The position numbers and the translations under genes were made by a program. The notes under the pieces are model-generated. The model was not told where the DNA came from. It did not search any database and saw nothing but the letters and a program-made list of their open reading frames with translations. A DNA stretch of 52,787 nt from an uncultured Candidatus Saccharibacteria bacterium (GTDB lineage Bacteria; Patescibacteriota; Minisyncoccia; GCA-002772825), in the NCBI GenBank assembly GCA_964363045.1, contig CAYIGM010000002.1, positions 1-52,787 on the forward strand. Reading direction: 5' to 3'. Position 1 is the stretch's first letter. The number at the start of each line of letters is the position of its first letter. Shown in pieces: positions 4,975-52,200 of this stretch.

Positions 4975-6053
4975 ATTTTCTTAAATAATTCAATAAATTT
5001 TTCCGCGCAATTTTCCCAAGAAAAATCACCGGCTCTCAAATCAGCCTTATTTACCAGCTCGTCTCTTAATTTTTCATCAAAAACCATCTTAGCCATAGCG
5101 GTAGCAATATCCTCGGGGTTTTTCGGGTCAACTAAAAGCGCGGCCCCGCCGGCCACTTCAGATAAAGAACTCCTGTCGGAAGTGATAACCGGCAAACCGC
5201 AAGCCATCGCCTCAAGCACGGGCATGCCAAAACCTTCAATCAAGCTTGGAAAAACGAGAGCTGACGCATTTTTATAAAGAAAAGAGAGTTGATTGTCACT
5301 GACAAATCCTAAAAAAATCACATCTTCTTTTAAATTATTTTCTTCAATAAAGCGTAATATCTCTCTATAATAAACATTATTGCCATTACCCGCGACAACA
5401 AATTTAAAATCGGATTCATTCTTTTTTTTGAATTCATAAAATCCCTTTATAATATTCAGAAGATTCTTCCTTTCTTTAATCACGCCGACATAAAGAAAAA
5501 AATTTAAAGGAACGGCAATCTTTTCCGACGGCAAAACGCATATTTTACTGAACCCGGGATATATCACCTCTATCTTCTTATGTGGAATATCAAACAATCT
5601 TATAATATCTTTCTTTGTCGCTTCAGAAATAGAGACAATATTATCCTCCCGCCTTAAAGCCAAGCCATTCATCTTATACAATAAAAAATTATTTATTCTG
5701 TTTCTAAAGCCTTCCGGCTTAAAATAAAGATAAGCAAAATCAAGAGCAACCACAATGGATTTCTTAGGGTGAAAAAAAATCGGCATAACAGGGGTATTAA
5801 AAATATAAATATCAGCTTTGGGCGCGAACAAAAGCCCTATCTCCATCCAGAATCTCCCGAAACCCAAAATTTCAATTCTCCAATTTGATGTCGTAAATTC
5901 CGGCATTATTTTGTGATTCTTTTTTAGATAGACTATATACTCATTTTCTTTATCGTTTTCAATAAGATATCTCGTCAAATCAAAAATATAACGGCCTAGT
6001 CCGGCTGGCTTCCCTTCTCCGTATGGGTGCAAGATTATACCTATTTTTGCCAT
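4971..6053 (-). CDS. Glycosyltransferase, GT4 (GT-B fold) family
   Basis: C-terminal EGFGMPVLEAMACGLPVITSD...LVDP motif (E-x7-E type) typical of family 1/4 glycosyltransferases. Confidence 0.85.
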   Translation of the reverse strand: MAKIGIILHPYGEGKPAGLGRYIFDLTRYLIENDKENEYIVYLKKNHKIMPEFTTSNWRIEILGFGRFWMEIGLLFAPKADIYIFNTPVMPIFFHPKKSIVVALDFAYLYFKPEGFRNRINNFLLYKMNGLALRREDNIVSISEATKKDIIRLFDIPHKKIEVIYPGFSKICVLPSEKIAVPLNFFLYVGVIKERKNLLNIIKGFYEFKKKNESDFKFVVAGNGNNVYYREILRFIEENNLKEDVIFLGFVSDNQLSFLYKNASALVFPSLIEGFGMPVLEAMACGLPVITSDRSSLSEVAGGAALLVDPKNPEDIATAMAKMVFDEKLRDELVNKADLRAGDFSWENCAEKFIELFKKI

Positions 6054-34601: not shown

Positions 34602-35180
34602 ATGGCGATGTTAGAATATAATGAAATAAAAGAGAGAAAACATATAATTTTTGAAGGCGAGCCTTATGAGGTGCTTGATTCTCATGTCTTCCGCAAGCAA
34701 CAGAGAAAACCGGTAAATCAGACCAAGTTGAAAAATATGATTTCCGGCAGGGTTGTGGAGCATTCTTTTCACCAAAGCGACAAAGCGGTGGAAGCGGAAT
34801 TGGAGACCAAACAAACAAAATATTTATATTCAAATCCAAAGAAAAATGAAGTTTGGTTCTGCTATGAGAATAAACCGAGCGAACGATTCTCTCTTTCTGA
34901 AAATGTTATCGGCCAATCGCTTAAATTTCTTAAAGAGAACAGCCTAGTGAATGCGATGATTTTTGAAGACAAAATCATAGACGTAAAGCTCCCGATAAAA
35001 GTGGAGCTTAAAGTGACCGAAGCGCCACCTTCCATCAAGGGCAATACCGCCCAAGGCGGAAACAAACAAGTGACTCTGGAAACAGGCGCCAATGTAAATG
35101 TTCCCCTATTTATAAATGAGGGCGATATCATTACCATCAATACCGAAACTGGAGAATACACAGACCGAGTGAGTAAATAA
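34602..35180 (+). CDS. efp: Elongation factor P
   Basis: Aligns without gaps to the EF-P N-domain (FEGEPYEVLDSHV...TKLKNMISGRVVEHSF) and the C-terminal GNKQVTLETGANVNVPLFINEGDIITINTETGEYTDRV. Confidence 0.92.
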   Translation: MAMLEYNEIKERKHIIFEGEPYEVLDSHVFRKQQRKPVNQTKLKNMISGRVVEHSFHQSDKAVEAELETKQTKYLYSNPKKNEVWFCYENKPSERFSLSENVIGQSLKFLKENSLVNAMIFEDKIIDVKLPIKVELKVTEAPPSIKGNTAQGGNKQVTLETGANVNVPLFINEGDIITINTETGEYTDRVSK

Positions 35181-35181
35181 T

Positions 35182-35206
35182 CACTTGGGCACCGAGTGGC
35201 CAAGTG
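35182..35206. repeat. Hairpin CACTTGG-N11-CCAAGTG between convergent efp and rpsR
   Basis: 7-bp inverted repeat. The arms are identical to those of the palindromes inserted in ileS (50121-50170). Confidence 0.5.
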
Positions 35207-49238: not shown

Positions 49239-52200
49239 TTATCTCACAACTTTTATTATAAACTCCAAACCATCTAACTTCAAAGCCTCTCCGCCTTCCA
49301 CTTCCTTAAACTCAACAGCGCGCGCGTTAACAATCTTCTTAAGCTCATCCTCAAATTTCTTTACCAATTCTTGTCCGACAGAATCCGTCTTAATGAAAAC
49401 AGCAATCTCATCCTTCGGTGTCAAACCGGCCTTCTTCCTTAAATCCTGGACAAACCTAACGATATCCCTAAACCTTCCTTCGGAAACAAGTTCGGGAGTT
49501 AATTCCAAATCTAGCTTTACGTCATTTTCAATTCCGGCATCGAAACTAATCTCCTTTACATTCACCTCGTCTTTCACCAGCTCAAGTAAATCATCTTTTC
49601 CTTTTAACTTTTCGTTCTTAATTATCAATTTTTGCAGAGGCTGCCTTACTTTAATCCCCGCTTCAGCTCGCGCCTCAAGACCAAAGGAGACGATCTTCCT
49701 TATCTCCTTCATATCATAAAGAATCTCTAAATCTTTATTCGTTTTATCCACCCCGAACATACCAAGGAGATTCTCAGTTAATGATTTCTTTAACGGCCAT
49801 TCTTCCAAGTGTACGCTTTCTTTTTCACTGCTCAACAACTTATAAAGCCTTTCTGCCATAAACGGCATTAAAGGAGCCGTCACTTTAGCAAAGCCCAAGA
49901 GAATGAATTTTGTGGTCAAGATAGCGCTCTCTTTATCTTCCCCTTCGTCTTTAAATCTGTCTCTGGAACGCCTGACATACCAAGTGGAGAGATCATCCAC
50001 AAAATCAAAAATAGGCCTTGCCGCTTTATCAAGTTCATATTTATCAAGGCCCGCTGTTATTTCTTCCGTCAATTCATTAAGTCGCGCGACTATCCACCTG
50101 TCCAAAATATTTCCTATAGTCCCACTTGGCGGCGCCGCCAAGTGGGACTTGGCGGCGCCGCCGCCAAGTGAGTACATATCGTAGAAACTATACACATTCC
50201 ATAAACGCAAAATTACTTTCTTATACACTTCATCTACATTTTTTTCCGAAAAATTGATATCCTCCGCGCGTACCGCCGGTGAGGATAAAAGATAAAGCCG
50301 AAGCGCGTCAGCGCCATATTTTTTAACAATTTCCACCGGGTCGGTATAATTCTTAAGACGTTTGCTTATCTTCTGCCCGTCGAGAGCCAAGATAATGCCG
50401 TTTACAATCACATTCTTATACGCCGGCCGACCAAACAAGGCGGTAGATAATACAAGCAGTGTGTAAAACCAGCCTCGCGTCTGGTCTAGCCCTTCGGCGA
50501 TAAACTCCGCCGGGAAATTCTTTTCAAGCTCCTCTTTATTTTCAAAAGGATAATGCGCCGAGGCATAGGGCATTGAACCAGACTCAAACCAGCAATCAAA
50601 TACATAGATAATCCTCTTCATCTTACCACCGCAAGAACAGTCAAACTCCACCTTATCTATATAGGGCCGATGCAAGTCCAGTTCATAATCCTCATTATGA
50701 GGAACTGGGGTAAACTCTAGCTTTCTTAATTCTCCGGTCTCTATATAATCATCGCCCTTTTCTTCTTTCATCTTTACCGACTTTTTCACATCAGCGCCAA
50801 GAGCGCCGGCAAAGAGAAGCCAGATAGGATACTCATGACTGATAATTAAAATATTCTTACCCTGATATTTGTTTTCAATATCATACAAAAATTCAGACAC
50901 TCTGTTTTTAAGCTCTGTCAGATTCTCCCCTTTAGGCGGCGATTTTACAAACTTCTCTTCAAAAGTGTCAAAATAATTATGGTAATCAGCCGGACTTTTC
51001 CCGTCAAAAATTCCGGTATTTAATTCCCTAATTCGTTTGTCAAAAATAATTTTCTCTTTATCATAACCGATCTCTCCTGCCACTATTTCAGCCGTCTCTT
51101 TTGTCCGGATAAAATCCGAAGAAAAGATAATATCAATATTTTCACTTTTTATTTTTTGAGAAATTCCACTCGTGTCCGCCCTTCCTTTTTCCGTAAGATG
51201 GTGCGGGTTATCCACCATGGAACTCACGATATTTTTCTTATTGTGGTCTGACTCTCCATGACGCATCACGAAATATCCATTGCCTGACTTTTGAATTTTA
51301 TCTTTGATATCATCTATGGAGCCTGCGATTTCCAAGCTATCGCACTTCTCGCATTTCCACACTGGCAAAGGCGCTCCCCAGAATCTGCTTCTTGATATCG
51401 CCCAGTCTCTGGCGCCAGAAAGCCACTTTCCGAAACGGCCGTTCTTTATATGCGCCGGCACCCAATTAATCTCCTCATTATTCTTAAGAAGATTGTCTTT
51501 AATTGCCGTCACTTTCACAAACCAAGAAGAGGTCGCGTAATTCAAGAGAGGTGTATCGCACCTCCAGCAATGTGGGTAAGAGTGAACTATCTTTTTCTTG
51601 GCAAACAATTTCCCTTCGCGAGCTAAATACTTTATTATTTCAATATCAGTTTCCTGGTGATTCTCTTTCGGTTTTACAAATCTTCCGGCAAAATCCTTCA
51701 CTTCACTTCTAAAACGACCGTCACCGGTGACATGCTGAACAAAAGGAAGAGCGTATTCCATGGCGACATTCATATCGTCCTCGCCAAAAGCCGGCGCGAT
51801 ATGCACAACACCCGTTCCTTCTTCCGTTGTCACAAAATCAGCCGAATATATTTTCCAGCCGTTTTCCCGATTCTCCAAATCTCTTTTCTCTGAATAATAA
51901 TCAAAAAGCGGTTTATAACTTTTACCGGAAAGAGTGCCTCCCTTAAAGGTTTCAATTATCTCGTATTCTCCTTCAATAACAGAAAGCCTGTCTTTCGCCA
52001 AAATAATCTTCTCGCCGTCTTTTTCAATCTTCGCATATAAAATATCCGGATTCATCGCCAAAGCGACATTGCCCGGAAGAGTCCAAGGCGTCGTCGTCCA
52101 AGCGAGGACAAAAGTGCCCGGCTCATCAACGAGCTCAAATTTAGCCGTCACCGAAATATCCGTAATATCCTTATACCCTTGAGAAACTTCAAAGTTCGCG

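Follow-up and report, generated by a model that had tools for sequence, protein, structure and literature searches.

Why does an AT-rich essential gene carry perfect, GC-rich palindromes that are read in frame? The gene is ileS, which encodes isoleucyl-tRNA synthetase (IleRS), and it lies on a 52,787-nucleotide stretch of DNA from an uncultured Candidatus Saccharibacteria bacterium (hereafter the window, GenBank assembly GCA_964363045.1). This stretch is contig C2 of the source genome, G000, a metagenome-assembled genome of 587.5 kb in 37 contigs. We consider it highly probable that the ileS palindromes are a doublet, comparable to the REPINs (repetitive extragenic palindromic [REP] doublets forming hairpins), of a 23-nt REP-type hairpin, (C)ACTTGG-N5-loop-N5'-CCAAGT(G), that belongs to the family of a Y1 HUH gene resembling the REP-associated tyrosine transposases (RAYTs) on contig C13, and that the doublet is kept by in-place copying.

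The initial annotation had described a perfect 26-nt palindrome followed by a near copy with one extra GCC, both translated in the ileS frame and richer in GC than their surroundings. The 26-nt palindrome is real and forms the core of a longer one of 32 nt, while the near copy is a second palindrome with three more central bases (Table 1). On the ileS strand they read as ...YSLGGGAAKSHLAAPPSGTIGNILDRW..., exactly as claimed, with copy A giving HLAAPPS and copy B, which is the unit of copy A plus three central bases, giving LGGGAAK (translated context ...FYDMY-SLGGGAAKSHLAAPPSGT-IGNILDRWI...). The doublet falls in the variable linker of IleRS that runs from the end of the catalytic domain (KISKR) to the DRWI helix opening the anticodon-binding domain. 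GC content over the element is 0.60 to 0.63 (60-nt windows), against about 0.40 in adjacent sequence and 0.395 in the whole genome. The expected count of the palindrome 24-mer, allowing up to three mismatches, is 0.00 (100 shuffles of the window), and the 81-nt segment folds as single-stranded DNA with −28.4 kcal/mol, against −11.7 ± 2.2 in 200 shuffles (z = −7.55). Copies A and B form a REPIN-like doublet whose units pair with each other as inverted repeats; its orientation is undefined because copy A is without its central bases (a 3-nt deletion).

Furthermore, the element is not unique in the genome, a possibility that the initial annotation had proposed to check by a genome-wide search. 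The unit (C)ACTTGGCGGCG-n-CGCCGCCAAGT(G), i.e., (C)ACTTGG-CGGCG-n-CGCCG-CCAAGT(G), is present in 13 copies on six contigs, made up of 11 exact matches to ACTTGGCGGCG-N(0-4)-CGCCGCCAAGT and two variants (reversed-pattern control, 0), and ACTTGGCGGC is counted 16 times in the 587.5 kb. With host genes named by Pfam, eight of the 13 copies are translated, all of them in frame (ileS, rpe, nusA, tsaD, folD, and the RAYT-like gene). Five of these eight are read as LGGxAAK, three as LAAxPPS, and none as TWRRRRQ, and the approximately 13 copies in long open reading frames (ORFs) of relatives use the same two frames and leave the TWRRRRQ frame unused. Since one DNA unit is read in two frames, a protein-level motif is excluded. 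A restriction site (central GGCGCC) was also rejected, as the centre differs in each of three same-genus genomes, and a DNA uptake sequence was rejected on copy number (13) and RAYT association.

The family is physically associated with the RAYT-like gene on C13, in or beside which we observe five of the copies, with a chance expectation of about 0.02 for that cluster. The two hairpins closest to either end of the gene have a central G and a central C on the plus strand and are thus mutually inverted. The protein has an HUH motif, NHYHF (N88-H89-Y-H91), and a tyrosine, Y148 (helix SVYVNLN), that are invariant in 12 homologues, and it matches Pfam Y1_Tnp with 23.8 bits (cutoff, 23). Its AlphaFold model (predicted template modelling score, 0.74) has low-confidence segments at residues 51-72 and 158-162, which are the peptides encoded by the hairpins. 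When this model was compared with the PDB by Foldseek, the sole match at E ≤ 0.001 was 4ER8_A, the RAYT of Escherichia coli in complex with a REP hairpin (E = 3.9e-5; TM = 0.61 on target), followed by the IS608 and ISDra2 TnpA structures (2VJV, 2XMA, and 2A6M).

With respect to related genomes, the exact G000 palindrome had no match outside G000 among 40 relatives and 0 matches in Joint Genome Institute (JGI) metagenome contigs, and a looser pattern was needed to find the genome-specific variants of the three same-genus genomes (the congeners G001, G002, and G003). The G000 variant is TTGGCGGCG-n-CGCCGCCAA. G001 has TTGGAGGC-gag-GCCTCCAA and TTGGCGGC-gga-GCCGCCAA, G002 has TTGGAGGC-taa-GCCTCCAA and TTGGAGGTT-g-AACCTCCAA, and G003 has TTGGCGGTT-c-AACCGCCAA and TTGGCGGC-gag-GCCGCCAA. 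Each congener carries three hairpin copies in or around its orthologous RAYT gene (70 to 78% identical). In ileS, whose orthologues are 79 to 84% identical, tandem palindromes stand at the same codons in G000, G001, and G003, with sequences that differ and are compensated on both arms, and the two units of the G003 doublet are inverted and fold as one 22-bp stem; the G002 linker is AT-rich, non-palindromic, and 3 aa longer. The folD and rpe sites are occupied in G000, G001, and G003, with the hairpin lost from folD and a decayed copy left in rpe in G002, and the tsaD site is occupied in G000 and G002 and has lost its hairpin in G003. At the nusA site, the G000 hairpin has its counterpart in another doublet in G003 (TTGGAGACagaGTCTCCAA twice, translated and inverted).

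At these shared host-gene sites, position and frame are the same while the inner sequence varies, always with compensation on both arms. The G001 folD copy, TTGGCGGCTCAACCGCCAA, is one base off the G003 type and has one arm mispaired, and G002 nusA has, in a single case, CTTG-AAAG-CAAGTG at the site of the G000 hairpin, 9 nt shorter, which may be either a mini-palindrome resembling a target or a copy with an internal deletion. Fourfold synonymous sites in ileS are only 37 to 51% identical between G000, G001, G002, and G003, a divergence at which unconstrained palindromes would have decayed. We conclude that the palindromes undergo active maintenance, with all copies of a given genome remaining alike.

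Occupancy of these sites does not come with longer proteins. The initial annotation had expected an alignment of orthologues to reveal 16 to 18 extra IleRS residues, and there are none: the G000 linker aligns without gaps to the hairpin-free yeast and human enzymes, and KMSKS and DRW are 90 aa apart in G000, 87 to 92 aa in other hairpin-bearing IleRS, and 82 to 93 aa in hairpin-free IleRS. Length differences at the other sites are +2 (folD), −1 (tsaD), +3 (nusA), and +1 (rpe). Within the RAYT gene, the median distance from the tyrosine to SSW at the second of two conserved hairpin sites is 20 aa with the hairpin (n = 39) and 20 aa without it (n = 34). Neither the congeners nor 30 IleRS loci (20 linkers parsed) held a clean empty site shorter by one or two element lengths. 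Given this lack of length gain, seen in the gap-free alignment, the KMSKS-to-DRW distances, and the longer G002 linker, the element occupies or overwrites loop codons and adds none.

Beyond the genus, the RAYT alignment comprises more than 558 relatives in species-representative genomes, and locus counts cover the best 80 of these, which with few exceptions carry the label Patescibacteria or Parcubacteria-group. Of these 80 loci, 60 have two or more cognate hairpins and 54 have one or more inside the RAYT ORF, where two sites are conserved, one after SIYENSF.K (site 1) and the other after the Tyr helix YVNLN.KVH (site 2); the relative orientation of hairpins across the 80 loci is mixed. The outer stem ACTTGG/CCAAGT is conserved, whereas hypervariable sequence makes up the loop and the inner 5 bp, the latter always being compensated. 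Among 40 site-2 hairpins, two-sided changes affect nine of ten core pairs and 97.4% of cells are paired; the rows had been preselected to have stems of 8 bp or more, a choice that inflates the paired percentage and not the number of pair types. Covariation at this site is 0.502, against 0.182 ± 0.015 when shuffled (0 of 500 reach 0.502) and ≤0.133 with partners slid. In several other genera of the class, the pattern is enriched relative to its control (matches versus control: G118, 18 versus 1; G113, 9 versus 1; G095, 7 versus 0; G122, 11 versus 4), with clusters again at RAYT genes; the three paralogues of G118 each have a variant of their own. Two other families, too, have a hairpin in the ileS linker, reading LEAKPPK directly before LDKWI in G122 and lying at C17:12157, within the ileS match, in G145.

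Length neutrality, compensated variants at near-saturated synonymous divergence, and uniformity within genomes thus point to an in-place copying process. By analogy with E. coli TnpA-REP (4ER8; PMC8266576), the RAYT would bind the folded single-stranded hairpin, and its cleavage and strand transfer might then copy or exchange hairpin sequence between existing sites; alternatively, RAYT nicks might be repaired from another hairpin copy. Such copying would keep the copies of a genome alike and perfectly palindromic, and selection on the host proteins would spare only those in tolerant loops and in two harmless frames (LGxxxxK and LxxxPPS). In housekeeping genes and the RAYT gene alike, the hairpins do reside in frame in segments that encode surface loops, and the IleRS doublet is probably a neutral passenger in the interdomain linker. 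More tentatively, we propose that RAYT-dependent cut-and-exchange, or short-patch conversion at RAYT nicks, may overwrite about 23 nt of a loop-coding segment or older hairpin with a master sequence, the copies fixed in the RAYT ORF perhaps serving as protected masters. If this is true, mobile DNA would be rewriting codons in place instead of inserting, and a repeat would dictate part of the sequence of IleRS, FolD, TsaD, Rpe, and NusA.

Several observations weigh against our main reading. Length neutrality is the main unexplained point, since protein length is unchanged at every site, which a "peel and paste" insertion would not predict, and we saw no filled/empty polymorphism. In G003, eight dispersed copies (CGGTT-c-AACCG) are unlike the three at its RAYT locus (CGGC-gag-GCCG), so that a strict rule of one RAYT for one hairpin is not always valid. 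The best-matching NCBIfam model for the C13 protein is NF047646 (the REP_Tyr_transpos equivalog), yet the score is 18.4 bits against a cutoff of 80 (37.5 bits for a paralogue in the window), and a phmmer search of PDB sequences gave no match; the C13 RAYT belongs to a distant clade and is not an NF047646 equivalog. In addition, the hairpin has no 5' GTAG/GTGG tag, the family numbers 13 copies where hundreds are typical of REPs, and the site-2 rows were preselected as stated above. Finally, the mobility of the hairpins is inferred.

Persistence of perfect pairing while synonymous sites are near saturation, like the occupation of the same ileS linker in three distant lineages, would also suit hairpins that are selected by the host, either as structures for mRNA stability, processing, or interdomain translational pausing or as DNA sites of chromosomal proteins. 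In that case the ileS copies would serve the cell, and the RAYT-like protein would either be domesticated for reading or maintaining the hairpins or be encoded next to them without any relation. Hairpins at fixed RAYT-gene sites in most homologues, one of them just 5' of the start as fits autoregulation, agree with this, as do the views that RAYTs are domesticated (PMC5581495) and that many REPs act in RNA (PMC3733652). We nevertheless find selection by the host unlikely, since one and the same 23-mer is found on both strands, outside genes as well as inside unrelated ones, where it is read in two frames, and since sites have been lost in congeners without visible consequence (ileS and folD in G002 and tsaD in G003). 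Uniformity within genomes combined with difference between them is, moreover, a signature of copying and not of site-by-site selection. In-place change without a change in length is also the outcome of conversion, which could come from general DNA metabolism without a RAYT, through template switching at quasi-palindromes or short-tract gene conversion between copies. Intrastrand template switching is an established route to perfecting quasi-palindromes, the mispaired arm of the G001 folD copy is the expected kind of intermediate, and the dispersed copies of G003 differ from those at its RAYT locus. However, a repeat of 23 nt is at best barely as long as homologous recombination usually requires, and this explanation, to which we give very little credence, accounts neither for the five of 13 copies at the RAYT gene, with the like in three congeners, nor for the own variant at 60 of 80 RAYT loci.

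Equally improbable is the plain in-frame insertion of a selfish palindrome resembling the Rickettsia palindromic elements (RPEs), adding about 16 to 18 residues to IleRS. It would explain a repeated GC-rich palindrome in frame in a variable loop of an AT-rich essential gene, and intragenic REP/RPE insertions that add 20 to 30 residues are documented (PMC3733652), but no length gain is seen in IleRS, folD, tsaD, nusA, rpe, or RAYT site 2, and the longer IleRS of G002 is without any palindrome. That assembly or binning produced the tandem palindromes can practically be dismissed. The genome is metagenome-assembled and in many contigs, and palindromes can mislead assemblers; against this, the ileS reading frame is intact, the unit is present at 12 further places, and tandem palindromes occupy the same codons in two independently assembled congeners. 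In-place copying of a RAYT-associated hairpin is the explanation that we retain.

The C13 gene is not the only one of its kind. We observe seven further RAYT paralogues in G000 (31 to 45% identity), several of them bracketed by their own, different palindromes; there are thus about eight RAYT-hairpin pairs in this 587-kb genome. The paralogue in the window has its own palindrome family with the core AAAGGAC-n-GTCCTTT, to which a further pair in the window, TATCAAGGACcGTCCTTGATA, is related. Palindromes of the other bracketed paralogues include AACCGACGTCcGACGTCGGTT (also on C5, C7, and C36), TGACCCAAACaagGTTTGGGTCA, and AATTATCGAGGTTcAACCTCGATAATT (also on C25).

Relatives of the ileS hairpin are found elsewhere in the window as well. 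The initial annotation had noted that the arms recur in an intergenic hairpin at 35182-35206 (CACTTGGGCACCGAGTGGCCAAGTG). The outer arms of the superfamily (ACTTGG/CCAAGT) are indeed common to both, but the inner stem differs and has one G.G mismatch, and we conclude that this hairpin is a relative of the ileS subfamily and not a member, comparable to loci L070 and L085 (ACTTGGACACcgaGTGTCCAAGT). A single ORF spans it, running from stop to stop over 115 aa on the minus strand, and is unlikely to be a gene. Another hairpin, CCCGCTTGGAAGCtTAGCTTCCAAGCGGG, combines the superfamily outer arms with yet another inner stem and is in frame in a 544-aa membrane-protein ORF, where the third frame gives AWKLSFQAG, a peptide that a near copy also encodes in a 290-aa ORF on C14. 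Apart from the hairpins, the catalytic core of IleRS has an entire His_Phos_1 (histidine phosphatase) domain nested within it at residues 498-662 (Pfam E = 1.6e-32).

In other genera, a 422-aa ORF on C25 of G122 contains a translated inverted doublet, LGGSTSK-LD-LEVEPPS, with the 26-nt spacing seen in ileS. In G113, hairpin pairs lie at ORF 5' ends, one ahead of the GAPDH start and the other at the N terminus of a 416-aa ORF that immediately follows the RAYT, and these may be untranslated leader elements rather than coding. The ileS linker of G126 is approximately 13 aa longer than that of the other IleRS examined and contains a GC-rich hairpin of another sequence (CCCCCTTTgaaAAAGGGGG) in a segment that encodes a repetitive peptide, IPPTPF...IPPLKKG; this may represent another repeat family using the same loop.

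Table 1. Hairpins, host genes, and RAYT-like genes of the source genome (C2 is the window)
Feature	Location	Strand	Details
ileS (IleRS, 1174 aa)	C2 49239-52763	minus	Pfam tRNA-synt_1 and Anticodon_1; two family copies
Perfect palindrome, 32 nt	C2 50118-50149		AGTCCCACTTGGCGGC then GCCGCCAAGTGGGACT; arms 50118-50133 and 50134-50149, 16 nt each, 100% complementary, no spacer
REP copy A	C2 50124-50143		Core of the 32-nt palindrome, ACTTGGCGGC then GCCGCCAAGT; family member without three central bases
REP copy B	C2 50147-50169		Palindrome with 11-nt arms, ACTTGGCGGCG-C-CGCCGCCAAGT; canonical 23-nt unit
His_Phos_1 domain	C2 50682-51284		Within ileS
Family copy in rpe	C8		One copy
Family copy in nusA	C21		One copy
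Family copies downstream of fusA	C21		Two copies
Family copy in tsaD	C22		One copy
Family copy in folD	C24		One copy
Family copies in or beside RAYT-like gene	C13 1527-2391		Five copies
RAYT-like HUH/Tyr gene	C13 1663-2352	minus	229 aa; two hairpins inside the ORF, read QLGGDAAKL and QLGGVAAKL
Hairpin upstream of RAYT-like gene	C13 2366-2390		13 nt before the ATG
Hairpin downstream of RAYT-like gene	C13 1638-1660		2 nt past the stop; another 110 nt further
RAYT-like paralogue	C2 22975-23673	minus	41% identical to the C13 gene
AAAGGAC-n-GTCCTTT copy in paralogue ORF	C2 23495-23519		Read PKGQSFGE; position homologous to site 1 of the C13 gene
AAAGGAC-n-GTCCTTT copies upstream of paralogue	C2 23702-23720, 23769-23791		
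Related pair TATCAAGGACcGTCCTTGATA	C2 24488-24508, 24566-24602		
Other RAYT paralogues with own bracketing palindromes	C4 26892/27629, C19 4084/4760, C21 566, C14 8716		
Superfamily hairpin	C2 35182-35206		CACTTGG-GCAC-cga-GTGG-CCAAGTG; about 3 nt past the TAA (35177-35179) of an upstream plus-strand frame
Superfamily hairpin CCCGCTTGGAAGCtTAGCTTCCAAGCGGG	C2 3746-3774		
Near copy of CCCGCTTGGAAGCtTAGCTTCCAAGCGGG	C14 9802-9822		
Run of N	C21 ~5020-5290		Between nusA and a BrnT/BrnA-like gene pair

These results bear on how REP/RAYT systems are viewed, as they are regarded as extragenic and mainly proteobacterial, and their route of dissemination is still unsettled. Here, such a system is found in ultra-small Patescibacteria genomes with almost no intergenic space, with hairpins inside essential genes and RAYT genes. 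The literature searched yielded no description of REP/RAYT systems in Patescibacteria, of hairpins at conserved RAYT-ORF sites, or of length-neutral occupancy. The hundreds of genomes concerned offer natural paired data on RAYT versus hairpin sequence, and in annotation such segments are not to be taken as lineage-specific protein motifs or insertions.

The closest known systems are REPtrons, REPINs, and the IS200/IS605 family (PMC2817692, PMC3116915, PMC3333891, PMC8266576). REPtrons consist of RAYT/TnpA-REP genes together with hairpins of REPs or bacterial interspersed mosaic elements (BIMEs), as described for E. coli yafM, Stenotrophomonas, and Pseudomonas (Nunvar 2010, PMC2817692; Ton-Hoang 2012, PMC3333891; Messing 2012, PMC3479197, the source of PDB entry 4ER8; Corneloup 2021, PMC8266576). 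The system described here resembles them in its Y1 HUH protein with a RAYT fold, in a gene that is bracketed by short GC-rich hairpins also dispersed in the genome, in hairpins that are genome specific and arm compensated, and in paralogous RAYTs that each have their own hairpin. Mutually inverted REPs flank the C13 RAYT gene at either end, and the flanking hairpin is the genome-wide repeat. It differs from REPtrons in that the ACTTGG/CCAAGT stem is conserved in place of a 5' GTAG/GTGG tag (GTG[G], where present, is at the hairpin 3' end and paired with CAC), in having 13 copies rather than the >100 of classical REPs, and in the intragenic location of eight of these 13, classical REPs being extragenic. 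Furthermore, the RAYT ORF itself bears hairpins at two conserved positions, the protein scores far below the NCBIfam RAYT cutoff, and the hosts are Patescibacteria, not Proteobacteria.

The IS200/IS605 transposases (IS608 and ISDra2 TnpA) belong to the same protein superfamily and, by analogy, would share a folded single-stranded DNA hairpin as substrate. Here, however, we observe no transposon body and no multiple identical gene copies, and the hairpins are perfect palindromes, whereas those of IS200/IS605 are imperfect and subterminal.

RPEs, reportedly described by Ogata et al. in 2000, were the comparison drawn in the initial annotation. The likeness in behaviour stands, as repeated palindromic DNA is read in frame in essential genes, while RPE membership is excluded for a 23-nt hairpin tied to a RAYT. 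Both RPEs and intragenic GTAG/CGTC REPs are palindromic repeats, often dimers, that are translated in frame in housekeeping genes and are presumed to be tolerated through their location in loops or linkers. Di Nocera 2013 (PMC3733652) described intragenic REPs, often dimers, as insertions adding 20 to 30 residues, and some RPEs have been identified as CGTC-type REPs. Those elements are reported to add residues (20 to 30 aa for dimers and 30 to 50 aa for RPE-1), CGTC REPs and RPEs have no associated transposase, and RPE-1 is approximately 100 to 150 bp long and found in Rickettsiales, whereas the unit here is 23 nt long, has a cognate RAYT, adds no residues, and is found in Patescibacteria.

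REPINs differ from the ileS doublet in that the spacer here is only 3 to 7 nt and the doublet is translated, and in G000 the units differ by the 3-nt central deletion, which leaves their orientation unreadable. As in REPINs, two REPs are adjacent, are inherited vertically, and persist at shared loci of related genomes, and the doublets of G003 and G122 are inverted (central C, then G), spaced 26 nt from start to start, and form one long hairpin.

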